From the NCBI GenBank assembly GCA_942493375.1, contig OW818698.1, positions 6,255,465 through 6,319,464 of the forward strand: a DNA stretch of 64,000 nt. The letters are read 5' to 3'. The DNA comes from Abditibacteriota bacterium (GTDB lineage Bacteria; Armatimonadota; UBA5829). This document shows positions 5,787-63,711 of the stretch, in pieces; positions within the stretch are counted from its first letter, which is position 1; every line of letters begins with the position of its first letter. A program made the position numbers and the translations under genes. The notes under the pieces are model-generated. The model was not told where the DNA came from and searched no databases. It worked only from the letters and a program-made list of their open reading frames with translations.

Positions 5787-6842
5787 ATGTTAAATCATAA
5801 ACCAATAGAAACAGTCATAGCCGGGCTTGGTCGGGCTGGTTGGGATATCCACTGGAAGCAACTACTCAAAGAACATCCTGGTTATCGAGTAGTTGGTGTT
5901 ATCGAACCTATGGAATCCAGACGGCTTGAAGCACAACAAGAGATTGCTTGTCGCACATATGCATCCTTTGCTGACTTCCTGGCTGATCCAATCGGTGAAC
6001 TCATTGTTATAGCGACGCCAAGTGGAGCTCACGGTTCTGAAGCACTCGCATGTCTTGAGATAGGATTAAACGTAGCAGTTGACAAGCCCATGTGCCAGGG
6101 TGTTGCAGAAGCTGACGCAATTATTGATCTTGCACATACTCGGAATTTGGTCCTGACCTGCTATCACCCATACCGGTTTAAAGAGGATTTCCTGGTTATT
6201 CGAGATATAATCCGCTCCGGGCGGATTGGTCGTATTGTGGAGATCAAATGCAACCGCAGTGAGTTCTTCCGCAGAAATGACTGGGTGATGCGCAAAGCCA
6301 AAGGTGGAGGAATGCACAATGTATGGGGTTCTCATACGGTTGACCAGTGTCTGCAGCTTGCAGCAAGTCCCGTAAATGAAGTGTTCAGTGATCTTCAGTC
6401 CACTGTTACCCCTGGTGATGCAGACGATCACTGCAAGATACTCATTAAATGTGAAAATGGTACCCTAATCGACGCTGAGATATCCAACAGTATGATATTT
6501 CCCCCTCAACCGGAGTGGATGGTTGCAGGGGAGTGCGGAGGTCTGGTTTCCTGTTCAGAAGGCATTCACGTGAAATGGTTTAATCCCAACAAAGCCCCGG
6601 AGATAATAATGCACGATGGCCCTGCTGTGAACCGCCGTTACGATAATGATGATACACTTCCCTGGCAGGAGGAGATTATACCTCTACCTGAGACAAGAGG
6701 ATTCGTGGCATTCTATGACAACCTCTGCCTGGCAATCCGGGAAAGCGCTCCACTGGAAATAACTCCTGAGAGCGCAAGAGACACAATAGCAGTCCTGGAA
6801 ACCTGCCGCAAGCAAAACCCGCATATCTGGGCAGATATCTGA
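5787..6842 (+). CDS. Gfo/Idh/MocA family NAD(P)-dependent oxidoreductase
   Basis: N-terminal Rossmann motif IAGLGRAGWDIHW, EIGLNVAVDKP in the middle, and the C-terminal alpha/beta domain. Confidence 0.6.
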   Translation: MLNHKPIETVIAGLGRAGWDIHWKQLLKEHPGYRVVGVIEPMESRRLEAQQEIACRTYASFADFLADPIGELIVIATPSGAHGSEALACLEIGLNVAVDKPMCQGVAEADAIIDLAHTRNLVLTCYHPYRFKEDFLVIRDIIRSGRIGRIVEIKCNRSEFFRRNDWVMRKAKGGGMHNVWGSHTVDQCLQLAASPVNEVFSDLQSTVTPGDADDHCKILIKCENGTLIDAEISNSMIFPPQPEWMVAGECGGLVSCSEGIHVKWFNPNKAPEIIMHDGPAVNRRYDNDDTLPWQEEIIPLPETRGFVAFYDNLCLAIRESAPLEITPESARDTIAVLETCRKQNPHIWADI

Positions 6843-7052
6843 CACAACATAGGTGTAAAAGACTGAGTTTCTTTTGAACTCGGACAAGAGGTTGGGTAAA
6901 TGAAGCAAAGGGTATAGTAAAGAAGAATTGGCAGGCGTATTAAAAGTGCTCAGATTGTGCATTGTCTGAAAATGTAGTGGCTATTAATCATTCATACACT
7001 GCTTTATGAAGGAACTGCCTGTCAACGATTGTTGTTTGGAGTTATCGGAGTT

Positions 7053-7922
7053 ATGGTGTATCCTGAAAATAAAATCATTGCATTTGCCAAATCAACGTTG
7101 ATTTTGATCTGTGTTGTAGCTGCTATATTAGGAGCAGTTCATGTTATATTTCTGTTGACAAAACTGACAAGGCAGCTTGGCCAGATGACTGTCAAACTTG
7201 ATAAACTGGATACAATGACATCAGAGATCAATCGTCTGAATTCACGGTTGAATATGCTTGAAGAGACAAATAACAAGCTTTACCGCATGGAGAATTATAT
7301 GCGCTTTTTGCCGGTTTTAGCTGATGTTGGGAAAGTAGCAGTAGCGGAATCTTCAAGTGCAAATCGGAAGCTCGATATTACAAACGAAAGATTAGCAAAA
7401 ACGAACTCATTCATGCTTGATTCTACAAAAAAACTTAATGCTACTAACTATAATTTGCAGTTCACTAATGGCAATTTAAGGGGAATGCGAACCAACCTCT
7501 CCCATATGGGGGACTCGATGGACTTAATGGCTGCACAGCTTCCAGTGTTAAATGATATGAATCAACAACTCGCTCAGACCAATTTCAACCTTGGTAAGAC
7601 TACTGCAAGTATCGAACAGGTCACACGTGGGGTCGACAAGGTCAGTAGTGGGCTTGATGTAATGCAAATACAGCTAAAAGATATGGACACCAACTTCACG
7701 GTTCTTCCTGAGATGAAATTGAGTTTGGACAAGACTAATGAGATGTTAACAGCCACTACTCTAACCCTTCAGCCACTATGTCTGAGTCTGCCTGCATTAA
7801 ATGCATCAGTTCAACAGATGAATCTTACAACCCAGGATATGTCGAAAAGCTTGAAGAAACTTCCAAATCAGGGTGCGGTGGGTCTAGGAGTGCTGACAAG
7901 TGCGATACTTTTTAGAAAATAG
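7053..7922 (+). CDS. Membrane-anchored coiled-coil protein with Asn/Thr-rich heptad-like repeats (hypothetical)
   Basis: A single N-terminal TM helix (ILICVVAAILGAVHVIFLL) is followed by about 230 aa of TNxxLxx-type repeats. No recognisable catalytic motif. Confidence 0.45.
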   Translation: MVYPENKIIAFAKSTLILICVVAAILGAVHVIFLLTKLTRQLGQMTVKLDKLDTMTSEINRLNSRLNMLEETNNKLYRMENYMRFLPVLADVGKVAVAESSSANRKLDITNERLAKTNSFMLDSTKKLNATNYNLQFTNGNLRGMRTNLSHMGDSMDLMAAQLPVLNDMNQQLAQTNFNLGKTTASIEQVTRGVDKVSSGLDVMQIQLKDMDTNFTVLPEMKLSLDKTNEMLTATTLTLQPLCLSLPALNASVQQMNLTTQDMSKSLKKLPNQGAVGLGVLTSAILFRK

Positions 7923-8067
7923 CTGCCAGGTAGTCCCTGCTGCCGCACAATAGCGAAGCTTAGTGCATAAAACGGATTGGCTTTAAGTACATTTTAAAAT
8001 GATCAGCATGTATGGAATGGTATACTATATATACTCGTGAGATACCTTACTGTTTGATTGCATACTA

Positions 8068-8172
8068 ACCCGTTTTATTCACCAAGCTTCGCTTTTGTCC
8101 GGCAGTTGGGACAAAAGCTGAGAGTGTAAATGCATAGCATTTACACCGTCAGTCATGAATAATGCGGGCTAA
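8068..8172 (-). repeat. MITE/REP-like nested palindromic element, family 1 copy (reverse orientation, with an internal palindromic insertion)
   Basis: Outer arms CCCGTTTTATTCACCAAGC ... GTCATGAATAATGCGGGC match the arms of the copies at 28637, 31215 and 63631. The inner palindrome is CTTTTGTCC/GGACAAAAG. Confidence 0.6.
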
Positions 8173-8949: not shown

Positions 8950-11900
8950 ATGCGAATAAACTCTATCAAACTACTGCCGAGAGTGCTCGGTGCATTTGTG
9001 ATCGTGGCTTTGATTGCCATTACGATCGGAATGGTAGGCCTGAAGACAGTTACAGAGATCGGTGGGCAACGCCTTCCGAGTATAGTTGCATTGCAGGACA
9101 TGACTCTTGCCCAGCAGAAAGTGTGGGTAGCAGAGCGTGGACTTATCAACCCGAGGATGATGGATCCCAAAGTACGTGCTGCCCAATACAAATATATTGA
9201 AGGTGCTTGGACGCTTGCTGATGATGCGGTCAAGGTATATGAGCCATCTGCTAAATCTAAAGAAGAAGAAGCAATTTGGAAAGAGCTCAAGCCGCAGTGG
9301 GATGAATGGAGAAAGTCACATGAGGCTGTCGTCCAGTTGGCCCGGCAGAAAGATGAGTTACTTGCTTCTGGAGCAACCACACAGAGTCCGAAGATACTTG
9401 CACTTGACCTCGAGACATTTAATGCATCTATGGAGGCAAGAGGCAAGGCATTATCTTCTATTGATTGTATAAACAAGATTCTCGTAATTAACAAAAAAGT
9501 AGCTTCGGCTTCTGCATTAACTGGCCGACGCAATATGATTACCGCAATGGCAGCCGGTATGCTCCTTGCCTTAGCTTTTGGAGTTATAATCGCCCTCAGC
9601 GTCTCCAAGCCGGTTGTAGGTATCAAAAATGTTGCTGATCAACTTGCTCTCGGAGAAGTAGACGTAAACCTGACTGTTAGCGGTAAAGATGAGATAGCGG
9701 ACCTCACGCGAGCTATGGAACAGATGGTTGCTGGGATAAAAGTTACCGTTGCAGCAGCCGGACAGATATCCAAAGGCGATATGTCTACTTATGTTGAACC
9801 CAGGTCTGACAAGGATGTATTAGCCATCGCAATGAACGGTGTCGTAGAGTCTGTGCGTGGACTGGTGGATGAGGCCGGAATGCTGAGTAAAGCAGCAGTA
9901 GACGGACGCCTGGACACCAGAGGAGAGGCTGATAAGTTTGAGGGTGGATTCCGCGAGATCATCGTCGGAGTCAATGACACACTCGATGCTGTCATTGGAC
10001 CACTCAATGTCGCTGCAGAGTACGTTGAGCGTATATCCAATGGCGACATCCCTGCCAGAATCACCGATAGTTACAACGGTGACTTCAATGAGATAAAGAA
10101 TAACCTGAATAAATGTATTGATGCCGTAAATGCAATGACTGCTGACGCTAACATGCTGAGCGTAGCAGCAGTAGAGGGTAAACTGGATACCCGTGCAGAC
10201 GCAACAAAGCATCAGGGTGACTTCAGAAAAATAATCTCCGGAGTCAATGACACTCTTGATTCAGTCATAGGACCATTAAATGTTGCTGCCGAATATATGG
10301 AGCGCATTGCCAATGGAGACATTCCTGCAAAGATCACCGATGAATACAATGGTGACTTCAACGAGATCAAGAATAACCTGAACAAGTGTATTGATCAGAT
10401 CAGTATGCTGGTTGACGAAGTTGGTGTAGTCATTGGTGCAGCCAAAGATGGCAAACTGTCTATGAGATCAGATACCGAAAGAGTTCAGGGTGTATACCGC
10501 AAACTTCTGCGTGGACTCAACGAGACCCTGGATTCAGTAGTCGGACCATTGAATGTAGCTGCAGAGCACATTGAACGCATCTCAAATGGAGATATCCCCT
10601 CACCGATCACCGATGTATACAATGGTGATTTCAACGAGATCAAGAACAGCCTGAATAAGTGCATAGGCGCAGTCAACCTGCTGGTTGCTGATGCTGGTAT
10701 GCTGAGTGAAGCTGCCATAGAGGGCAAACTCGATACCCGAGCTGATGCATCTAAGCACGGTGGTGATTTCCGTAAGGTTGTTACTGGAGTCAATGGAACC
10801 CTTGATGCAGTAATTGGACCACTCAATGTTGCTGCTGAGTATGTTGAGCGAATTTCCAATGGAGACATCCCTGGGAAAATCACCGATAGTTACAATGGTG
10901 ATTTCAACGAGATCAAGAACAACCTGAACAAGTGTATAGAATCGGTTAATGCGATGGCAGCCGATGCTGTAATGCTCAGCGAAGCCGCTGTAGAGGGAAA
11001 ACTGGCCACCAGAGCTGATGCATCAAAGCACCAGGGTGATTTCCGTAAAATCATTCAGGGAGTTAACGATACACTTGATTCAGTTGTTGGTCCTTTGAAT
11101 GTAGCAGCAGATTATGTTGACAGAATATCCAATGGGAATATACCTTCCAGTATAACCGACAACTATAATGGTGACTTCAACACCCTGAAGAATAACTTGA
11201 ACAAATGTATTGCAGCAGTTAATGCGATGGTTGCAGATGCTGGTATGTTGAGTATAGCTGCCGTAGAAGGTAAATTGGATACAAGAGCTGATGCAAGTAA
11301 ACATCAGGGAGACTTCAAAGCGATTGTTGAAGGAGTCAATCAGACTCTGGATTCGATAGTTGGGAACCTGGAAGCAATACCGACTCCGATCCAGTTTATG
11401 GACAAGGATTACAATATCCAGTATATCAACAAGACAGGAGCAGCTCTACTCGGTAAGAGTAAAACTGAACTCACTAAATACAAGTGTGCGGATGTCTGGA
11501 ATACATCAAAGTGCCGAACAAAAGACTGTCCATGTTCGAAAGCGATGGAGCTTAACAGCAGTTACGAATGTGACAATGATACAATGGTTGGCGACAAGCG
11601 ATTTGACATACATTGTGCAGCTGCTCCTCTTAAGGATAAAGCTGGTAACACAGTTGGGTCATTCGAGTTCGTAATTGATCAGTCGGATATAGTCAATGCC
11701 GGCAGAGTAATGCAGAAGATCGGCCAGTATCAGGACTTGGAAGTGGAGAAACTCAATTCTGCGTTGGCACAATTTGCACAAAATGATTTGACAGTAAGTG
11801 TTGAAACAGGGACTGCAGATGCTGATACAGCGGAGACTAAAGGAAAATTCGACAAGATAGCCGATGCTTTCAATGATTGTGTAACAGCGATGGGCAGTGT

Positions 11901-13912: not shown

Positions 13913-14005
13913 CCGTTCGTCCTGAGCGCAGTCGAAGGGCAGCAATCCCAGCCAGCAGTAATCCTGTAAATCCCATAATCCTATTAATCTTCTTCAGACA
14001 ATACC
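13913..14005 (+). repeat. ~95-bp direct repeat copy 1 (immediately upstream of the beta-helix gene)
   Basis: ccgttcgtcctgagcgcagtcgaagggcagca...aatcctgtaaatcccataatcctattaatctt. Two 32-bp blocks are identical to the copy at 15781. Confidence 0.8.
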
Positions 14006-15780: not shown

Positions 15781-15873
15781 CCGTTCGTCCTGAGCGCAGT
15801 CGAAGGGCAGCAGCACCTGGTCACAATAATCCTGTAAATCCCATAATCCTATTAATCTTGTTCAGACAACACC
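15781..15873 (+). repeat. ~95-bp direct repeat copy 2 (immediately downstream of the beta-helix gene)
   Basis: Same two 32-bp blocks as the copy at 13913, with a 15-bp variable spacer between them. Confidence 0.8.
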
Positions 15874-19199: not shown

Positions 19200-19362
19200 G
19201 GAGCTGCGGAGAAACCTTGTCATTCTTAACGCTAACTTTGTCATTCTGAACGCAGTGAAGAATCTGCTGTTCCGGATACCTCACATACCCATAACAGCAG
19301 ATTCTTCGTTCCTCAGAATGACACTGGGGACGGCAGGCTGGAAGCCTGCACCACAATTCAGC
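19200..19362. repeat. Family-2 palindromic repeat (GTCATTCTGA...CAGCAGATTCTTCGTTCCTCAGAATGACA plus GGACGGCAGGCTGGAAGCCTGCACCACAAT module)
   Basis: Long imperfect inverted repeat plus a 7-bp-stem hairpin. Related copy at 53411-53552. Confidence 0.6.
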
Positions 19363-28606: not shown

Positions 28607-28636
28607 TTTTTACTTATATTATATCCTAATGGATAA

Positions 28637-28718
28637 CTAGCGCACATTACTCGTGATTGATTCACTTTCGCCCCTAATGCCGGTCGAAAGCAGAGTCTGG
28701 TGAATAATGCGCGTTAGC
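28637..28718. repeat. MITE/REP-like nested palindromic element, family 1
   Basis: CTAGCGCACATTACTCGTGATTGATTCACTTTCGCCCCTAATGCCGGTCGAAAGCAGAGTCTGGTGAATAATGCGCGTTAGC. Outer arms are CGCACATTA.TCGTG/CTGGTGAATAATGCGCG and inner arms are CTTTCG.CC/GGTCGAAAG. Confidence 0.7.
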
Positions 28719-28815: not shown

Positions 28816-29838
28816 CTAGCCGAAACCTGTTTCAATGAACTGATCGCGGATGGCGTCCAGTTGGTCTAGGGCTTTTCCGCATCCGACAGCTACGCAGGAG
28901 AGCGGGTCTTCTGCAACTATTACGTGGATGCCGGTCTCTTTGGAGATTCTCTGGTCAAGTCCTCTGAGCAGAGCAACTCCACCGGTGAGTACAATTCCTC
29001 TTTCGATAATATCTGCGCTCAGTTCAGGAGGAGTCAGTTCCAGGACATTCTTGATGCGTCCCATAATCGCTGTCACTGGCTCATCCAGTGCTTCTCTGAT
29101 TTCCAGAGAACTGATTGTAACTACCTTTGGAAGACCTGCAACAAGGTCACGGCCTTTTACATCCAGCAATAGCTCTTCCTGAAGAGGGGATGCGCTTCCG
29201 ATTTTCAGCTTAATCTCTTCAGCTGTTCGGTCACCGATCATCAGGTTATATTTGTTCTTGATGTGCCGCTGAATGACCTCGTCCATCTTGATCCCACCAA
29301 CTCTGATGGATTTCGAGATGACGGTTCCGTCCAATGACAATACAGCGATGTCAGTAGTTCCACCGCCAAGGTCAACAATCATGTTTCCCCCGGGTTTGGA
29401 TATAGGCAGCCCCGCTCCGATGGCAGCGGCTCTGGGTTCTTCTATTGGATAAGCCTGCTTTGCGCCAGCTTCTCTTGCAGCCTGAGTTACTGCTCCTTTT
29501 TCAACAGGAGTAACTTCGGATGGAACCGCAATGATGACAATTGGTTTGATACCGAGTAGACTACGTCCGCAAACTTTGGCGATGATGAATTCCAACATCT
29601 TGAGAGTAGTGCTGTAGTCTGCAATAACGCCTTCAGACATGGGGCAGACAGCTTGTATATTGCCGGGAGTCTTACCGAGCATTTCTTGAGCTTCAGTGCC
29701 GACTGCCAGCAACCCTCCTGTGGATACATTCTTAGCGACAACGCATGGTTCTCGCAAGACTATCCCTTTACCTTTGAGGTATACCAGTATATTAGTTGTG
29801 CCGAGGTCTATTCCCAACTCGGGGACTAGGTTAAACAA
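28816..29838 (-). CDS. mreB: Rod-shape-determining actin homologue MreB
   Basis: 340 aa; LGIDLGTTNILVYLKGKGIVLREPCVVA...MIVDLGGGTTDIAVLSLDG are the actin-fold phosphate 1/2 motifs. Confidence 0.85.
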   Translation of the reverse strand: MFNLVPELGIDLGTTNILVYLKGKGIVLREPCVVAKNVSTGGLLAVGTEAQEMLGKTPGNIQAVCPMSEGVIADYSTTLKMLEFIIAKVCGRSLLGIKPIVIIAVPSEVTPVEKGAVTQAAREAGAKQAYPIEEPRAAAIGAGLPISKPGGNMIVDLGGGTTDIAVLSLDGTVISKSIRVGGIKMDEVIQRHIKNKYNLMIGDRTAEEIKLKIGSASPLQEELLLDVKGRDLVAGLPKVVTISSLEIREALDEPVTAIMGRIKNVLELTPPELSADIIERGIVLTGGVALLRGLDQRISKETGIHVIVAEDPLSCVAVGCGKALDQLDAIRDQFIETGFG

Positions 29839-31114
29839 AGACGGGTTCCCTTTCTGTTTCGGTGCTGACCAGTTCTATCTGTGCACCGAGTGCACGTAGC
29901 TTCGGTACCATGTTATCATAACCACGCCGAATGTGCTCAACACCAGTTATCTCACTCTTACCTTCAGCGGCTAATGCAGCACACACTAACGCTGCGCCTG
30001 CGCGCAAGTCGGAGGCCGTGGTCTGAGCTCCAGTTAGAGTGGGGATTCCAGCTATGATGGCATTTCTACCTTCTTGCTTGATGTTAGCGCCCATTCTCTG
30101 CAGTTCGGAGACGTATCTAAAACGTCGTTCATATACGTTTTCAGTAACGATTGATGTGCCGTCGGCTACGGTTAAAAGAGCTGCGAACGGTTGCTGCAGG
30201 TCAGTAGGAAAACCTGGGTAGGGCATTGTCATTATGTCTGTAGCGAGAGGACGTTCGTGGCATCTTACTCTCATATCATCAGCGGAGACATCAACAATAG
30301 CGCCGGCTTCTCTAAGCTTTAGGCAGAAAGATTCGACATGCTCGGGGACAATGTTTTCGATTCTTACATCGCCTCTGGTTATTGCAGCAGCGACGGCAAA
30401 TGTCCCGGCTTCCATTCGGTCAAATGGTACGGAATAATCGGTCCCACGGAGTTCTTCCACACCGCTGATGCGTATAGTGGTTGTTCCAGCTCCGGATATC
30501 CGGGCTCCCATTGTTCTGAGGAAATTAGCAAGTTCAAAAACTTCTGGTTCAGCAGCTGCATTGTGTATAGTGGTAAGTCCATCTGTAAGACATGCTATGG
30601 TCATCAAATGCTGAGTAGCGCCTGCACTGGGGAAATTGAGGTATATCTGAGTTCCTTTGAGATGGTCACACTGGGCTTCGACAAATCCGTGGTCAATGAC
30701 TACATGGGCTCCAAGGGTCTGGATTCCCTTTACATGGAAGTCAATCGGTCTAGCACCAATGTCGCATCCACCAGGCATTGCAACTTTTGCATAACCTCGT
30801 CTGGCCAGGACTGGACCCAAAACGCAAAAAGAAGCTCGCATCGTTCTTACAAGTTCATAAGAGGTTTCTGTGTGGGGGATTTCAGTGGCATCTACGCGAA
30901 GGATACCTCCGCTCTCTAGCTCACATTTTACACCAAGGCCACGCATGACCTCTATCATAGTCCTGACATCAGCGATTGCCGGAACATTACGCAGAATGGT
31001 TTCACCTTTTGCCAATAAAGCCCCAGCCATTACAGCCAGTGCCCCATTCTTGCTGCCACTAGGCTGTACGCATCCTTCTAATCTCGCGCCGCCAGTCAGT
31101 ATGAGCTTGTCCAA
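29831..31114 (-). CDS. murA: UDP-N-acetylglucosamine 1-carboxyvinyltransferase MurA (TTG start)
   Basis: LDKLILTGGARLEGCVQPSGSKNGALAV aligns with the MurA N-terminus. TTG at 31114 is preceded by GGGAGGG. The catalytic Cys is in ...RASFCVLGP.... Confidence 0.8.
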   Translation of the reverse strand: MDKLILTGGARLEGCVQPSGSKNGALAVMAGALLAKGETILRNVPAIADVRTMIEVMRGLGVKCELESGGILRVDATEIPHTETSYELVRTMRASFCVLGPVLARRGYAKVAMPGGCDIGARPIDFHVKGIQTLGAHVVIDHGFVEAQCDHLKGTQIYLNFPSAGATQHLMTIACLTDGLTTIHNAAAEPEVFELANFLRTMGARISGAGTTTIRISGVEELRGTDYSVPFDRMEAGTFAVAAAITRGDVRIENIVPEHVESFCLKLREAGAIVDVSADDMRVRCHERPLATDIMTMPYPGFPTDLQQPFAALLTVADGTSIVTENVYERRFRYVSELQRMGANIKQEGRNAIIAGIPTLTGAQTTASDLRAGAALVCAALAAEGKSEITGVEHIRRGYDNMVPKLRALGAQIELVSTETEREPVFV

Positions 31115-31214
31115 AAACCAATCCCTCCCGATACAATCTAGCCAGGCCGAATCTGAACGCTTTTTCACGTACAGATTTTTCAGTAAGGAGTCTCCCTTAC
31201 AAGTAACCGACGCG

Positions 31215-31296
31215 CTATCGCGCATTATTCGTGATCGGCCCACTTTCGACCCTACTGCCGGTCGAAAGTAGAGTTTTGTGAATAATACGCGTTAGT
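31215..31296. repeat. MITE/REP-like nested palindromic element, family 1
   Basis: CGCGCATTATTCGTGATCGGCCCACTTTCGACCCTACTGCCGGTCGAAAGTAGAGTTTTGTGAATAATACGCG. Confidence 0.7.
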
Positions 31297-31598
31297 ACAC
31301 GCTCAAAAGTATAGCCCCAAAGAGGCAAGCCTGTCAACACAACGAGGAACATTTGCCCTAATTTAGTTGTGTCTACAGAAGTATCAACGCAACGCAAATT
31401 GAAAAGTTACACTGCATTTGTACAATATCAATAGGAATGTGTGTCAATGTTGTCGGTGACCACTAGTATTCTACCAGAAAATGTTGTATTTATACGAAAA
31501 TGGGAGTGGGGGATGGTGAAATGACGGAGACAGTATAGTCCGTCCACCCTTCGATTGCGCTCAGGGTGGACGGGGTGTGTGGCTGGATTATTCGTAAT

Positions 31599-32402
31599 TT
31601 AGACTTTCAATACGCAGACAGATGCTGGAACTCTGACTCTTGGAGCTATGCTTTCAGATATCATGAATTCATATCCTGATCCAGCAGGTCCAACATATCC
31701 GGTAGCCATATCCTGGCCGACTACAATGGAAGCAAATTGTTTGCCTGATGCCAGCAATACTCCACCGCTCTTAAGTGATGGTGCCTTGATTATCTTAGAG
31801 CCGACCACACCGGAAATATGTTCCATTTCCGAAGGTCCACCCTGCGGATAGAGTCTGAACAACAGGTTGTATAGTCCAGGCGCTAATGCCAGAGTGTAAG
31901 GGCCATGGAAGCCTTTGTCATCCAGTTTGGTAACAGCTGAAATAATATCAGTGCCTGCTGCTCCAATGGCATCCCAGTTTGATAGTTTTACAGACTGAGT
32001 TCCTGAAGCAGTTAGTAGACCATCAACTCCGAGGGCTTTATTACCCTCGAATATAATGCTGTCTTCCATAGCTGCAACAGCCTGTGCTGCTCCGGCAACA
32101 GCGGACATGTCCATTGCGAATCCATTCTCTACAAAACCAGCGATATCACGAGCGGATAGTGTGAAGCCGGTGTCTATTAACGGAACCGGGACTGACTTAG
32201 ATGCAGAAAGGGTTACTGACCCATCATTTATTACCCGGTCTTCGAGCGGGATCTGTTTGAGACCCAGTCCATAAGGTCCTTCAATATCCAACACTCTTCG
32301 TCCGGTGAGTACACTCTTTGCTGCTTCTATGACAACATGGTCAAGCAGATTCCAGACGACTTCCCCAAATGGGGCATCATTTCTTCCCAAAAAATTATCC
32401 AT
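31599..32402 (-). CDS. Encapsulin nanocompartment shell protein (family 1, HK97 fold)
   Basis: 267 aa and collinear with known encapsulins: VLDIEGPYGLGLKQ (DVEGPYGW in T. maritima), GPYTLALAPGLYNLL (GPYTLVINTDRW), IVVGQDMATGYVG (LILGQDLSIGY), C-terminal ...VPASVCVLKV. Confidence 0.8.
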   Translation of the reverse strand: MDNFLGRNDAPFGEVVWNLLDHVVIEAAKSVLTGRRVLDIEGPYGLGLKQIPLEDRVINDGSVTLSASKSVPVPLIDTGFTLSARDIAGFVENGFAMDMSAVAGAAQAVAAMEDSIIFEGNKALGVDGLLTASGTQSVKLSNWDAIGAAGTDIISAVTKLDDKGFHGPYTLALAPGLYNLLFRLYPQGGPSEMEHISGVVGSKIIKAPSLKSGGVLLASGKQFASIVVGQDMATGYVGPAGSGYEFMISESIAPRVRVPASVCVLKV

Positions 32403-32490
32403 ATTTATATCTCCTAGTCTAGATGTTGGAGGTTAGAGGTTGGATGTTAGTATTTGTTATCCAAACTCTCCGAAATCATATTGCATTGTT

Positions 32491-32889
32491 TTACTTGAGT
32501 GATCCGATAGTTGGGATGTGCACAGGTGCTTCATCCGCAGATTCGGCTTCTGCCTTGTCCTCAGGAGTAGGAAGGGACATGTCTCCTTGCTCTACCTCTT
32601 CAGCCATCTCACGGACTTCATCGAAACCATTTTGAAGCCACCCTTCCTCATCAGGTAGAAGGATCTTCAGTAGTTGAATAAATTCACCAACGTGGACCCT
32701 CTCCTCATTGGCAATATCCAGAAAGACTTTTTTTGCCAACGGATTGTCAGTGGCTTCGGCATGTGCTTCATAAAGTGATGCTGCATCCAGTTCGGCAGCG
32801 GTATTCATTCTGATAGCTCTTACTAATTCCGGTAGTGTCATTTTTCTACCTGGAACAATCTGCGAAAAGGGATCTGTGAAATTGGGCAT
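32491..32889 (-). CDS. Encapsulated ferritin-like cargo protein (EncFtn/Flp) with C-terminal encapsulin targeting peptide
   Basis: 132 aa from the ATG at 32889 (GGAGGCTCAGATATG RBS). Ferritin-like residues are ...AELDAASLYEAHAE...ANEERVHVGEF (E/Y, then EExxH). An acidic linker precedes a C-terminal ...VHIPTIGSLK tail, which matches the GSLxIGSLK-type targeting peptide. It lies 88 bp upstream of the shell gene. Confidence 0.75.
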   Translation of the reverse strand: MPNFTDPFSQIVPGRKMTLPELVRAIRMNTAAELDAASLYEAHAEATDNPLAKKVFLDIANEERVHVGEFIQLLKILLPDEEGWLQNGFDEVREMAEEVEQGDMSLPTPEDKAEAESADEAPVHIPTIGSLK

Positions 32890-33089
32890 ATCTGAGCCTC
32901 CGAACCTAGGAATTATATAGAGTCTGCCTGCTAGTGTAGTGGACTCCAGTTTGAAAATACCCGAATTTGAACAATGCCAAACAGAAAGGTTGAAAGATAT
33001 AGAAATATTTGTTGAGTAAGGGATGTATACTAGGGCAATCAATCAAATAGCAAAGGGTGAGTGTTTGATCGTGTGAAGATTTTGTCAGG

Positions 33090-33165
33090 TGGAGCCGACG
33101 AGGGGACTCGAACCCTTGGCCTGAGCTTTACGAAAGCCCTGCTCTACCAACTGAGCTACGTCGGC
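33090..33165 (-). tRNA. tRNA-Thr (anticodon CGU)
   Basis: Cloverleaf read as GCCGACGTAGCTCAGTTGGTAGAGCAGGGCTTTCGTAAAGCTCAGGCCAAGGGTTCGAGTCCCCTCGTCGGCTCCA. Anticodon loop TTCGTAA. Confidence 0.8.
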
Positions 33166-33172
33166 ATTCCGA

Positions 33173-33248
33173 TGGTGCCGAGAGTCAGAGTTGAACTGAC
33201 GACACGTGGATTTTCAGTCCACTGCTCTACCAACTGAGCTACCTCGGC
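33173..33248 (-). tRNA. tRNA-Phe (anticodon GAA)
   Basis: GCCGAGGTAGCTCAGTTGGTAGAGCAGTGGACTGAAAATCCACGTGTCGTCAGTTCAACTCTGACTCTCGGCACCA. Confidence 0.8.
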
Positions 33249-33303
33249 ACGCGGTCTTCAAGCCAAACCGACCCACTTTGGTGGTGGGTCGGTTCAGGAA
33301 AAT

Positions 33304-33380
33304 TGGCGGGGATGACGAGACTCGGACTCGCGGCCTCCTACGTGACAGGCAGGCGCTCTAACCAACTGAGCTACACCCCC
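33304..33380 (-). tRNA. tRNA-Asp (anticodon GUC)
   Basis: GGGGGTGTAGCTCAGTTGGTTAGAGCGCCTGCCTGTCACGTAGGAGGCCGCGAGTCCGAGTCTCGTCATCCCCGCCA. Confidence 0.75.
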
Positions 33381-33391
33381 GGGTGTGGACT

Positions 33392-33467
33392 TGGTGGGCG
33401 AAACAGGGCTCGAACCTGTGACATCTTCCTTGTAAGGGAAGCGCTCTCCCAGCTGAGCTACTCGCCC
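33392..33467 (-). tRNA. tRNA-Val (anticodon UAC)
   Basis: GGGCGAGTAGCTCAGCTGGGAGAGCGCTTCCCTTACAAGGAAGATGTCACAGGTTCGAGCCCTGTTTCGCCCACCA. Confidence 0.8.
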
Positions 33468-33769
33468 GACTCGCTGACCACCAAACAGTAGATATTTTAT
33501 CACAGGCGTTCATTGTTGTCAATGATCGTCTGTTTGCTGTCTGACTCTGTCACTAGCTCCAAACAGCCAAGCAGAATTATAGCATTAGTCAGGCTCAGGT
33601 GTCAATGGGGAATTTGGGAGATGGGGAGAGTTGGGACTGGGAGACGGGGCGACTAGGAGAGAGGGGGACTGGGGAGAGGAAAGCAGGAGAGTACTGAGGA
33701 GAGGCAGAAGAGGTATTTGTGGAGAATGAAGTTTACGGTTATTAATATCAATAGTACGGAGTTTAGCAG

Positions 33770-34873
33770 ATGACATCACGAGACGTTATTGATGATTTAC
33801 TGAGACGCAATAAATCCAGTCGTATGGGAGTGCATGAGCTATTCTGGCCGGAGACATTTCCTACATGGCTTGAACAGGGATATCCTACATATACAAATGA
33901 ACATGGTGAAACTGTGCCTGTGGATCATATAGAGCACTTTGGTCTGGATATGCGGGATGCGGCTGCTTGGCTTGATCCTATGCCCATTCAGGGATTTATG
34001 GAAGTTGTCGAGGAAAGCGATGAGTGGGTTTCACGACGCAATGGTGCCGGAGCTGTCCTGAAATATTGGAAACACAAGAGTGGAACACCTGAACATATAG
34101 ACTTTCGTATGACAAGCAGGGAAGTGTGGGACAGAGACTACCGAGGCCTTGTGGACATAATTGACCGAAATCGTGTGGATATTGAAGGCACAAAGAAAGG
34201 CCTGGCTCTATGCAGGGAAAAAGGCAATTTTGCTTGTTTTGGTCATACTCTTATTTGGGAGACAATGCGTGCCAGTATGGGTGATATTTGCATGTTCGAG
34301 AGTATGGCACTGGATCCTGACTGGATACACGATTACTGCAGAGTATATACGGATTATTACAAGAACCACTATAAAATACTCCTCGAAGAAGCCGGAAAAC
34401 CGGATGGAGTGTGGATATATGAAGACCTTGGTTATCGCAATGGCCTGTTTTGTTCACCAAAGACAATGGATGAGTTGATATTCCCATATTATAGAGATAT
34501 GGTGAGTTTCTATCACAGTTATGATATTCCAGTGGTGCTGCATTCTTGCGGTAATATTTCTGAAGGGGTAAGGATGATCGCTGAAGCTGGATTTGATGGT
34601 TTGCACCCAATGGAAGTCAAAGCCGGATGCGATCTGTTGAAATTTGCAGAGGAATACGGTGATCAGCTGACATTTATCGGAGGCCTGGATGTTAGAATTC
34701 TAGAAACCGGTGACCGGGATGTCATCAAGGCTGGTATTCTGCGTATTATCAATGGCATGAAATCGCGTGGAGCACGGTATGTTTTTGGCTCTGATCACTC
34801 GATACCGCCCTCAGTGAAATACGAAGATTATAAGTACGCACTGGAAGTGTATAGGGACAATTCGGAATATTAA
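33770..34873 (+). CDS. Uroporphyrinogen decarboxylase (URO-D) superfamily protein (HemE/MtaA-like methyltransferase fold)
   Basis: 367 aa. URO-D-like C-terminal region: HSCGNISEGVRMIAEAGFDGLHPME...FIGGLD. Confidence 0.5.
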   Translation: MTSRDVIDDLLRRNKSSRMGVHELFWPETFPTWLEQGYPTYTNEHGETVPVDHIEHFGLDMRDAAAWLDPMPIQGFMEVVEESDEWVSRRNGAGAVLKYWKHKSGTPEHIDFRMTSREVWDRDYRGLVDIIDRNRVDIEGTKKGLALCREKGNFACFGHTLIWETMRASMGDICMFESMALDPDWIHDYCRVYTDYYKNHYKILLEEAGKPDGVWIYEDLGYRNGLFCSPKTMDELIFPYYRDMVSFYHSYDIPVVLHSCGNISEGVRMIAEAGFDGLHPMEVKAGCDLLKFAEEYGDQLTFIGGLDVRILETGDRDVIKAGILRIINGMKSRGARYVFGSDHSIPPSVKYEDYKYALEVYRDNSEY

Positions 34874-53378: not shown

Positions 53379-53410
53379 GTTGGTGTTCGGCTGTCTGGGT
53401 AGGAATTTGG

Positions 53411-53552
53411 GGACGGCAGGCTGGAAGCCTGCATCACAATAGTTACTCTGCTGGTGATTGTCATCCTGAGGAATGAAGGATCTGCTTTTACGTGTGGATT
53501 ACACTGGCACAGCAGATCCTTCGTTCCTCAGGATGACAGAGGGGTCAGGATG
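53411..53552. repeat. Family-2 palindromic repeat between convergent genes
   Basis: GGGGACGGCAGGCTGGAAGCCTGCATCACAAT + GTCATCCTGAGGAATGAAGGATCTGC...GCAGATCCTTCGTTCCTCAGGATGAC. Confidence 0.6.
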
Positions 53553-62616: not shown

Positions 62617-63570
62617 TTACTTGTCTGGATATGTCTGATTCAGTATCGTTCTGAGCTTAAGAATGGAAGCATTTGAGATGGGTATATGGAAATCGAACTC
62701 CGACAAGGTGTAGTCCAGCAGTCTTGTTGCTGTATCACCAAGGAGATTGGGTGTGCTGCGACAGATATTGCCCATGTTGAGGCCTCGGTGGTTGAGTATG
62801 TATTTGGCGGCTGGCAGGTAATCACATGCGCACATTATATCGTGCATAATCTGAGCTGATTCGTATGCTTGATTCCTGAGTTCCGGATCAGAGCCGTTAC
62901 ACATTGTTACACAGTGTTCGGGACATACGTTTGCTATTATGCCACAATGGCCGGCTCCTCCTGCTTTTAGTGTCTCAGGTGTGCAGCGCAGGTTGGCTGC
63001 GAATATCTTAAGGGGTGTGTTTTCCGCGGCGTGGACTTTAGTCATGCAATTATTCAGGTCTGACGATGTCTCTTTTACAAATATGAAACGACCGGTTGGA
63101 GCTATCTGAGAGATTTCCTCGGAGGTGATTTGTATGTGTTTCGGGGAGGGGCATTCATATATTCCCAGAGGAATCTTAGTAAGTTCACTCAATTTTATTA
63201 GTTGTCCGGGAATGTCACTGGGAGACGGCAGGATCGAAAGCAGAACGACTACGGCGTCTACCCCTGTGTCATACATTGCTTTGACGCTAATGACCTGTTC
63301 ATCCAGCGATCCGCTAAAATTACCACTGGCTACGATCGGTATAGCTCCATTGGTGCGGTTGACTACCCGGTTAGCTATCAGATGTCTTTCCTCAGGGGTC
63401 AGGTGGAACATTTCACTGGAAAGACAGACGGTGAATATTGCTGATACTCCTGCATTTATGTAGAAATCAACCATTTCGTCTATAACATCATAGTTTACGG
63501 CTCCATTGACATCGAATGGGGTCAACATTACCGGAATTGCGCCGGATGGAATTTCAATAAATCTTGCCAA
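62617..63570 (-). CDS. Dihydrodipicolinate synthase/N-acetylneuraminate lyase (DapA/NAL) family class I aldolase
   Basis: IPVMLTPFDVNGAVNYDVIDEMVDFYINAGVSAIFTV... TIM-barrel. The Schiff-base Lys region is FIFVKETSSD. Confidence 0.6.
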   Translation of the reverse strand: MARFIEIPSGAIPVMLTPFDVNGAVNYDVIDEMVDFYINAGVSAIFTVCLSSEMFHLTPEERHLIANRVVNRTNGAIPIVASGNFSGSLDEQVISVKAMYDTGVDAVVVLLSILPSPSDIPGQLIKLSELTKIPLGIYECPSPKHIQITSEEISQIAPTGRFIFVKETSSDLNNCMTKVHAAENTPLKIFAANLRCTPETLKAGGAGHCGIIANVCPEHCVTMCNGSDPELRNQAYESAQIMHDIMCACDYLPAAKYILNHRGLNMGNICRSTPNLLGDTATRLLDYTLSEFDFHIPISNASILKLRTILNQTYPDK

Positions 63571-63630
63571 TGAAGTTGTCCTCCTGCCCCCAAGTTGGGG
63601 GTGCCAACTTATTTCGTTTAGAAACCTATA

Positions 63631-63711
63631 CTAGCCCGCATTATTCATGATTGACTCGCTTTCGCCCCTACTGCTGGTCGAAAGCAGTGCTTGGTGAATA
63701 AAGCGGGCTAG
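63631..63711. repeat. MITE/REP-like nested palindromic element, family 1
   Basis: CTAGCCCGCATTATTCATGATTGACTCGCTTTCGCCCCTACTGCTGGTCGAAAGCAGTGCTTGGTGAATAAAGCGGGCTAG, which has perfect 11-bp terminal inverted repeats. Confidence 0.75.

Follow-up and report, generated by a model that had tools for sequence, protein, structure and literature searches.

A Probable Chromosomal Family 1 Encapsulin Operon with an Flp/EncFtn Cargo from an Uncultured Member of the Armatimonadota

Introduction

Family 1 encapsulin systems are typically laid out with a single cargo gene directly upstream of the gene for the shell protein (PMC8346489). The DNA considered here (the window) is a stretch of 64,000 nucleotides (64 kb) from contig OW818698.1 of assembly GCA_942493375.1, and it contains a gene pair of this layout on its minus strand: a gene for a ferritin-like cargo protein of 132 amino acids (aa) followed by a gene for a shell protein of 267 aa. 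The locus very probably represents a family 1 ("classical") encapsulin operon with a cargo of the Flp/EncFtn type, carried on the chromosome of an uncultured member of the Armatimonadota, and nothing in the evidence contradicts the encapsulin assignment.

The best solved match to both proteins is the EncA/EncB/EncC system of Myxococcus xanthus (4pt2, 7s20, 7s4q, 7s8t, 7s5c), in which EncA, the shell, scores 156 bits. This system shares with the window locus the family 1 architecture, a C-terminal targeting peptide, and the EExxH ferroxidase motif. Identity between the window shell and EncA is about 33%, and the window shell is shorter by 20 residues and lacks 12 residues of the EncA E-loop hairpin. 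In M. xanthus there is more than one cargo (EncB, EncC, and EncD), with some of the genes lying away from encA, whereas the window locus has a single cargo gene, directly upstream of the shell gene.

The systems of Thermotoga maritima, Rhodospirillum rubrum, and Haliangium ochraceum (3dkt, 5da5, 7oe2), which form shells of triangulation number (T) 1, resemble the locus in their Flp-then-shell operon and in the concept of a decameric EncFtn, and the spacing of the ferroxidase Glu/Tyr/Glu/His residues is common to their EncFtn and the window cargo. Their shells are 264–266 aa long, which is near the length of the window shell, and align with it almost without gaps, but they score only 79–81 bits against 132–156 bits for natural T=3 and T=4 shells. 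Pyrococcus furiosus (2e0z, 5n5e) has a cargo of the same sub-branch and a shell domain that also matches. However, its Flp forms the N-terminal part of a fusion with the shell and carries no targeting peptide, whereas the window locus has separate genes and a C-terminal targeting peptide. Quasibacillus thermotolerans (6nj8, T=4) has an iron-mineralizing family 1 system with a close shell and a TVGSL-type targeting motif, but this shell is 282 aa long and its cargo, IMEF, is a four-helix-bundle dimer that lacks EXXH and is not of the EncFtn type (PMC11202242).

Shell Protein

The operon and its parts are located as follows (window coordinates).

32491–32889, minus strand: cargo gene, encoding a 132-aa EncB/EncC-type encapsulated ferritin-like protein (Flp/EncFtn superfamily)
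32692–32793, minus strand: ferroxidase-center segment, cargo residues 33–66 (E33, Y40, E62/E63, H66)
32494–32523, minus strand: targeting peptide VHIPTIGSLK at the cargo C-terminus, preceded by an acidic linker of low model confidence (residues ~100–122)
32403–32490, minus strand: intergenic spacer of 88 bp with the ribosome-binding site of the shell gene, as read from the sequence
31599–32402, minus strand: shell gene, encoding a 267-aa family 1 encapsulin (HK97-fold) protomer

The product of the downstream gene is a shell protomer with the HK97 fold. It matches the profile hidden Markov model (HMM) of Pfam PF04454 (Linocin_M18) at 1.7e-70 and 237.6 bits (cutoff 24.3), over profile positions 2–253 of 253. 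Against the NCBIfam equivalog NF041155 (encap_f1), a model for the "family 1 encapsulin nanocompartment shell protein", it scores 232.2 bits (cutoff 100), with positions 1–261 of 261 aligned. A sequence search of the PDB with the shell protein yields 37 distinct matching sequences, every one of which is an encapsulin; the best are M. xanthus EncA (4pt2, 9e-45), the shell of Dendrosporobacter quercicolus, QtEnc (6nj8, 3e-39), and the shell of Bacillus methanolicus.

The AlphaFold2 model of the shell, built with a 32-sequence alignment, has a mean predicted local distance difference test score (pLDDT) of 87.8 and a predicted template-modeling score (pTM) of 0.83, and comprises an N-terminal helix (residues 14–29), an E-loop hairpin (residues 50–72), and an alpha/beta core. 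When this model is compared with the PDB by Foldseek, the top 50 matches consist of encapsulin shells only (E down to 7e-27; template-modeling (TM) scores of 0.81–0.87), and the fold superposes on solved encapsulins with TM scores of 0.86–0.87. The initial annotation, which was made from the sequence alone, had proposed a family 1 shell of the HK97 fold; Linocin_M18, encap_f1, and Foldseek all identify an encapsulin, in agreement with that proposal.

The HK97 fold is common to encapsulins and phage capsids, and the 267-aa protein also has weak matches in Pfam that stay below threshold, to DUF6260 and to Major_capside PF09950 (19 bits; cutoff 26.8). The protein could be imagined as a major capsid protein left by a decayed prophage of the HK97 type, with the small upstream open reading frame (ORF) unrelated to it. 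This explanation is extremely improbable. The score against the equivalog encapsulin HMM is far over its cutoff, the top structural matches are all encapsulins, and in 79 of 80 loci the shell is accompanied by the upstream ORF with its tail (see section Gene Pair in Other Genomes). In addition, the neighbors are tRNA genes, murA, mreB, a paralog of the URO-D family, and an accD-like ORF (the last read by eye); no terminase, portal, protease, or tail gene is present among the immediate neighbors, to which the examination of the window by homology was confined. A prophage capsid is thus refuted for practical purposes by the encap_f1 score, the structure matches, the neighbors, and the pairing with a cargo.

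Cargo Protein and Targeting Peptide

The product of the upstream gene is short and ferritin-like, with a putatively disordered acidic linker and a conserved T-I-G-S-L-K targeting peptide. The ATG of this gene is at position 32889, and the protein starts with MPNFTDPF, contains AELDAASLYEAHAE and ANEERVHVGEF, and ends with VHIPTIGSLK. This form is taken as the gene because the NCBIfam profile EncB_fam aligns from its residue 1 and because GGAGG is located 8–12 nt before the ATG. A 183-aa form in the mechanical ORF list, started by a TTG at 33042, is not the gene and is ruled out by the fit to the profile. The Shine-Dalgarno-like sequences are GGAGG (32897–32901) for the cargo gene and AGGAG (32411–32415) for the shell gene.

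Residues 1–131 of the cargo match NF058679 EncB_fam over profile positions 1–117 of 117, with a score of 110.4 bits (cutoff 90). In Pfam, the cargo matches Rubrerythrin at 1.4e-07 and COQ7 weakly; Flp ferroxidase cargos were grouped under these Rubrerythrin/COQ7 labels by Andreas and Giessen (PMC8346489). The nearest solved chain is M. xanthus EncC (7s8t), at 7e-17 with the cargo sequence alone and 1.4e-25 with a profile, and this alignment covers cargo residues 5–131, including the ...GSL tail. The second-best solved match is P. furiosus EncFtn (5n5e; 4e-15, residues 16–96), followed by EncB, whereas H. ochraceum EncFtn is reached by the cargo profile at E=0.003 only. Because of this ranking, the cargo is placed in the EncB/EncC/P. 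furiosus branch, that is, judging from the sequence matches, in the EncFtn superfamily and outside the TIGR04535 subfamily.

The ferritin-like region extends over residues ~16–96 and aligns with the EncFtn domains of P. furiosus and EncC. Within it, E33, Y40, E62, E63, and H66 do not vary across 23 aligned cargo homologs. The spacing of these residues, E-7-Y-23-E-3-H, is that of Glu32/Tyr39/Glu62/His65 in R. rubrum EncFtn, in which ferroxidase activity is diminished or lost when the three metal ligands are mutated (PMC11202242).

A ferritin-like cargo with a targeting tail had been suggested from the sequence, and both parts of this suggestion hold. The former is sustained by the EncB_fam score, the E33/Y40/E63/H66 pattern, and EncC as the nearest solved chain. 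For the latter, the alignment with EncC takes in the ...GSL tail, and T[IV]GSL[KR] is kept in nearly all of the cargo-bearing loci described below. No second ORF with a T[IV]GSL[KR]-type tail occurs among the ORFs of the window.

Gene Pair in Other Genomes

GTDB species representatives were scanned with the shell alignment, which gave 291 relatives, and 80 loci were kept; an earlier scan of contigs with exact shell peptides had returned no relative. A cargo homolog lies directly upstream of the shell gene in 79 of the 80 loci, and in the remaining locus the contig begins 68 nt upstream of the shell gene. In nearly all of these 79, the cargo tail carries T[IV]GSL[KR], followed by between zero and a few residues. 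The linkers of related cargos differ in both length and sequence, and the spacer between the cargo and shell genes ranges from 5 to 160 bp. A constant tail after a variable linker is the pattern that a targeting peptide attached by a flexible tether should show.

The gene pair is kept as a unit across many phyla. The shell family is found in Armatimonadota, Anaerolineae, Methanolinea, Methanoregula, Methanothrix, Brocadiaceae, and Pirellulales (Planctomycetota), among others, and cargo–shell operons of this type are present in hundreds of public genomes. The features of the window locus are not due to chance (HMM E-values: shell, 1e-70; cargo, 5e-32), and the central proposal of the initial annotation, a self-contained two-gene encapsulin system, is well founded on the curated HMMs, the solved relatives, the predicted fold, and the pairing in 79 of 80 loci.

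The further suggestion that the system might be undescribed did not stand. Homologs in metagenome-assembled genomes (MAGs) of Armatimonadota are already annotated at NCBI as "family 1 encapsulin nanocompartment shell protein", and the Flp/EncFtn operon type ranks second in abundance among the family 1 types (PMC8346489). A literature search for encapsulins in Armatimonadetes found no paper, and the relevant taxa are not mentioned in those parts of the supplementary text of PMC8346489 that were available. The locus is an ordinary system, one more uncharacterized family 1 encapsulin of the Flp/EncFtn type with native composition, and it adds an example of this well-described type in a rarely cultured phylum. 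Automated annotation would get the locus right, and the locus opens no new biological question. It does document a widespread and experimentally untouched shell/cargo clade that is common in anaerobes and methanogens, and it offers a compact candidate for nanocage engineering.

Shell Geometry

In the PDB search, natural T=3 and T=4 shells score 132–156 bits against the window shell and T=1 shells score at most 83 bits. The closest relatives of the cargo likewise come from T=3 systems. In contrast, the Foldseek comparison gives root-mean-square deviations of 2.8–3.0 Å between the shell model and protomers in the T=1 state, and of 4–6.5 Å for most T=3 and T=4 chains. The sequence therefore favors kinship with the T=3/T=4 shells, whereas the length of the protein and the E-loop conformation of the model resemble those of T=1 shells. 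The T number has been ascribed to the orientation of the E-loop and not to any sequence signature, and EncA itself forms T=1 shells without cargo and T=3 shells with cargo. PDB entries 9zvv and 9zw3, which are of comparably short length, were set aside as guides to the T number; they are engineered variants of the Q. thermotolerans shell with deletions in the A-domain loop, and are uninformative in this respect.

The initial annotation had expected particles of ~24 nm (T=1). This expectation is not secure, as the nearest solved relatives of both the shell and the cargo are T=3/T=4 iron stores. An unexpected geometry is conceivable because a T=3/T=4-like sequence is combined here with a T=1-like short E-loop and length. 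A clade that stands between the T=1 and T=3/T=4 models could inform how shell size is encoded.

Proposed Function

The mechanism proposed for the locus draws on homologs from M. xanthus (EncA/B/C), P. furiosus, R. rubrum, and T. maritima. By analogy, the cargo would form D5 decamers in which dimer interfaces build di-iron ferroxidase centers. During self-assembly of the shell, the C-terminal peptide of the cargo would dock in a pocket formed by the N-helix and the P-domain, such that the cargo becomes enclosed. Fe(II) would enter via the shell pores and be oxidized by the cargo, and a ferric mineral would be laid down inside the shell. Flp cargos are unable to hold mineral alone, and the shell is needed for this. 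The outcome would be storage of iron together with protection from Fe(II) and oxidant chemistry.

The same assembly might instead serve mainly to detoxify O2, H2O2, and Fe(II) in an oxygen-sensitive host, in a rubrerythrin-like manner, with iron storage as a secondary effect. The concentration of the shell clade in anaerobes (Methanolinea, Methanoregula, Methanothrix, Anaerolineae, Brocadiaceae) and the match of the cargo to Pfam Rubrerythrin are consistent with such a role, which we regard as a real possibility without favoring it: the closest characterized systems, those of M. xanthus (EncA/B/C) and Q. thermotolerans, are demonstrated iron-mineralizing stores, and storage and protection are not mutually exclusive. 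Even in an iron-storing compartment of the Flp/EncFtn type, protection may matter as much as storage, because the shell clade is enriched in anaerobes.

Several points limit the assignment of the locus as a functional Flp/EncFtn operon. Its assembly and encapsulation, and likewise its ferroxidase activity and iron mineral, are projected onto it from homologs, and the T number of the shell is not readable from its sequence. The cargo scores 71.5 bits against TIGR04535 ferrit_encaps (R. rubrum-type), which is under the cutoff of 125, and the EncB/EncC/P. furiosus branch is the one with fewer mechanistic data. The single-sequence AlphaFold2 model of the cargo is poor, with a pLDDT of 68.8, broken helices, and values below 56 in the linker and tail. 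In addition, a consensus scan detected neither a sigma-70 promoter nor a U-tract terminator for the operon itself.

Host and Neighboring Genes

The features that flank the operon are as follows.

33090–33467, minus strand (the strand of the operon): tRNA genes Thr(CGT), Phe(GAA), Asp(GTC), and Val(TAC), found by ARAGORN and Rfam
32943–32996, minus strand: conserved block between tRNA-Thr and the cargo gene, a putative promoter or operator
31540–31573, minus strand: stem-loop 26 nt past the shell stop codon, with an 11-bp stem and no U-tract
31214–31295, strand not assigned: copy of a miniature inverted-repeat transposable element (MITE) in the murA leader, recognized from its repeat copies and from empty sites in relatives

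All features of the initial annotation were recovered where it had placed them, and its tRNA-Thr/Phe/Asp/Val cluster is confirmed by ARAGORN and Rfam. Rfam reports only these four tRNAs in the window, and the MITE and the stem-loop have no match in it.

The adjacent MurA protein is 72–75% identical to MurA from MAGs labeled as Armatimonadota and 87–95% identical to proteins on short, unlabeled metagenome contigs. The best named hits of the shell are also from Armatimonadota, with identities of 59–64%. From these similarities, the host is judged to be an uncultured Armatimonadota bacterium. In a neighbor-joining tree of 82 shells, the window shell pairs with that of a diverged contig, L086, and the two join a 10-member clade that holds every shell labeled as Armatimonadota.

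An identical shell protein occurs on independent metagenome contigs, including the JGI contig L081, in which the URO-D, tRNA, cargo, and shell neighbors are the same as in the window. L086 is 95% identical to the window in MurA, 92.5% in the shell, and 78% in the cargo, and it has the same gene order: tRNA-Thr, cargo, shell, murA. The tRNA-then-operon order is thus common to the window, L081, and L086. In more distant Armatimonadota (MurA identity of 74–75%), murA and mreB stand together with other genes upstream of murA and no adjoining operon, and in GCA_021372295.1 the encapsulin operon and murA are on different contigs (L004 and L085). The position beside the tRNA genes is therefore specific to the lineage of the window.

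Downstream of the operon, murA (29831–31114) and mreB (28816–29838) are both on the minus strand and overlap by 8 nt, a pairing that is kept in all Armatimonadota relatives examined (L083–L086). MurA is 427 aa long in homologs; the mechanical ORF of 470 aa runs over into the MITE.

On the other side, with the tRNA genes, are an accD-like ORF, as read by eye only from its translation, and a URO-D-family paralog, which lies on the plus strand at 33770–34873. The paralog is a divergent protein resembling uroporphyrinogen decarboxylases and methyltransferases, with a Pfam match (6.5e-17) to the C-terminal half only. Paralogs of this family are located directly downstream of the shell gene in L001 (6894–8051), L002 (~7178–8005), and L017 (~6424–7428), which brings the occurrences beside the operon to four of 81 loci: the window, its two closest GTDB relatives, and one Anaerolineae locus. 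No flanking gene is shared by more than a few loci, and the URO-D paralog is the sole recurring neighbor. Its proximity possibly reflects a link between iron and tetrapyrroles, or else coincidence.

The clade of Armatimonadota, Anaerolineae, methanogens, and Planctomycetota might be distinguished by an unexpected or switchable shell geometry, by a specialization in the oxidant or iron chemistry of anaerobes, or by a partnership with the URO-D protein. Any such distinction is unlikely; a partnership of the last kind, if true, would tie iron to tetrapyrrole metabolism.

Expression Signals

The region between tRNA-Thr and the ATG of the cargo gene is 200 bp long and has a TATAAT-like motif at 32913–32921. 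Within it, the block at 32943–32996 has hardly changed between the window and the diverged L086, whereas the surrounding intergenic sequence has drifted. The operon probably has its own regulatory region, for which this block is the candidate. The tRNA cluster has a strong sigma-70-like promoter, close to consensus, at 33522–33494 (minus strand; TTGACA-17-TAAAAT, 11 of 12 matches, with an extended TG), and a terminator scan detected none between tRNA-Thr and the cargo gene (32890–33089). The encapsulin operon may therefore be partly co-transcribed with the tRNAs by read-through.

The GC-rich stem-loop after the shell gene has a folding energy of -23.2 kcal/mol (z = -3.3), and it was not called by the terminator scan because it has no T-run. 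L081 has a compensatory change in the stem (CCGTTCACCC/GGGTGAACGG), and the hairpin is absent from L086. A terminator or stabilizer of the operon is a possible role for it. The core of the stem-loop, CCTGAGCGCAGTCGAAGGG, recurs at 13921 and 15789, where it heads two direct repeats of 93 nt (13913–14005 and 15781–15873) that are 1.9 kb apart and 88% identical. The core may thus belong to a second small repeat family or a terminator-like family.

With Shine-Dalgarno sequences, native codon usage, and an identical shell on independent contigs, both genes look intact and expressed.

The MITE and the Question of Lateral Acquisition

The element in the murA leader belongs to a palindromic repeat of 82 nt with three full copies in the window (31214–31295, 28636–28717, and 63630–63711), a longer variant (8064–8171), and weaker fragments near 7933, 8399, and 51015. 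When the spacers between the shell gene and murA are aligned, the window has an insertion of ~77 nt that is missing in L081 and L086. The empty site in these two contigs reads GTAC-TA-GCGCGTCG, and the occupied site in the window reads GTAC-TA-[ACGCGTATTATTC...GAATAATGCGCGA]-TA-GCGCGTCG, in which a TA duplication flanks the element. The repeat folds at -43.9 kcal/mol (z = -5.6) into an outer stem, which corresponds to imperfect terminal inverted repeats, and an inner hairpin.

The 82-nt element is a true MITE, being small, non-coding, and multicopy, with terminal inverted repeats, a TA duplication, and an insertion polymorphism; the initial annotation was right on this point. It is similar to known TA-duplicating bacterial MITEs in its size (~77–82 nt), lack of coding capacity, imperfect terminal inverted repeats, several copies, TA duplication, and polymorphism. 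Comparable elements of the IS630/Tc1-mariner type are the Correia element of Neisseria and the pneumococcal RUP, to which the likeness is one of description only. The 86 related loci contain no copy of it. No partner transposase was identified in the window, although no dedicated search was made for one. A conserved sigma-70-like promoter (TTGACA-18-TATACT, 31337–31308) lies ~10 nt upstream of the element, which in the 5' leader of murA would form a hairpin of -44 kcal/mol in the mRNA. The locus thus provides a clean natural case of MITE insertion polymorphism in a murA leader.

The initial annotation had taken the arrangement of tRNA genes and MITE around the operon as suggestive of lateral acquisition, and the operon could on this basis be a mini-island recently acquired at the tRNA cluster and bounded by the MITE. 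It is located immediately 3' of tRNA-Thr, the classic side of integration, and its position is not fixed in Armatimonadota, as judged from the relatives with 74–75% MurA identity and from the split in GCA_021372295.1. The shell clade spans Armatimonadota, Anaerolineae, methanogens, and Planctomycetota, and the occurrence of family 1 types across distant phyla has been ascribed to frequent horizontal gene transfer (PMC8346489).

The MITE itself was rejected as an island border. L081 and L086 carry the operon with an empty site, and the MITE was therefore inserted into the murA leader of a locus that already had the operon. Between the tRNA genes and murA (ORFs in 31100–33090), there is no integrase or other mobility gene. 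Nor is there an att-like repeat: tRNA-Thr sequence recurs over at most 9 nt in the 2 kb that follow, compared with a mean of 8.2 nt and a maximum of 12 nt in shuffles. Relative to 46 genes of the window, the z-scores of the shell and cargo genes are -0.3 and -0.5 for GC content, -1.6 and -1.3 for GC content at third codon positions, and +1.6 and -0.2 for codon usage, and there is no step in GC content. In addition, the placement of the shell within an Armatimonadota-containing clade of the neighbor-joining tree agrees with the affinity of MurA. With the MITE later and independent, no integrase or att repeat, native composition, and a phylum-consistent tree, the boundary arrangement does not indicate lateral acquisition, and the mini-island explanation is improbable. 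A recent acquisition of the operon is not supported, and an ancient transfer to the phylum is conceivable.

Other Repeats in the Window

Five tandem copies of a 273-nt unit, 66–75% identical to one another, are located at 9862–11253 and probably encode a 91-aa repeated domain of a large protein. Two repeat segments of 33 and 36 nt, 89–97% identical, are found at 19294–19357 and 53408–53544 (also 63220–63252); they lie ~34 kb apart with their order swapped, and represent a dispersed small repeat.

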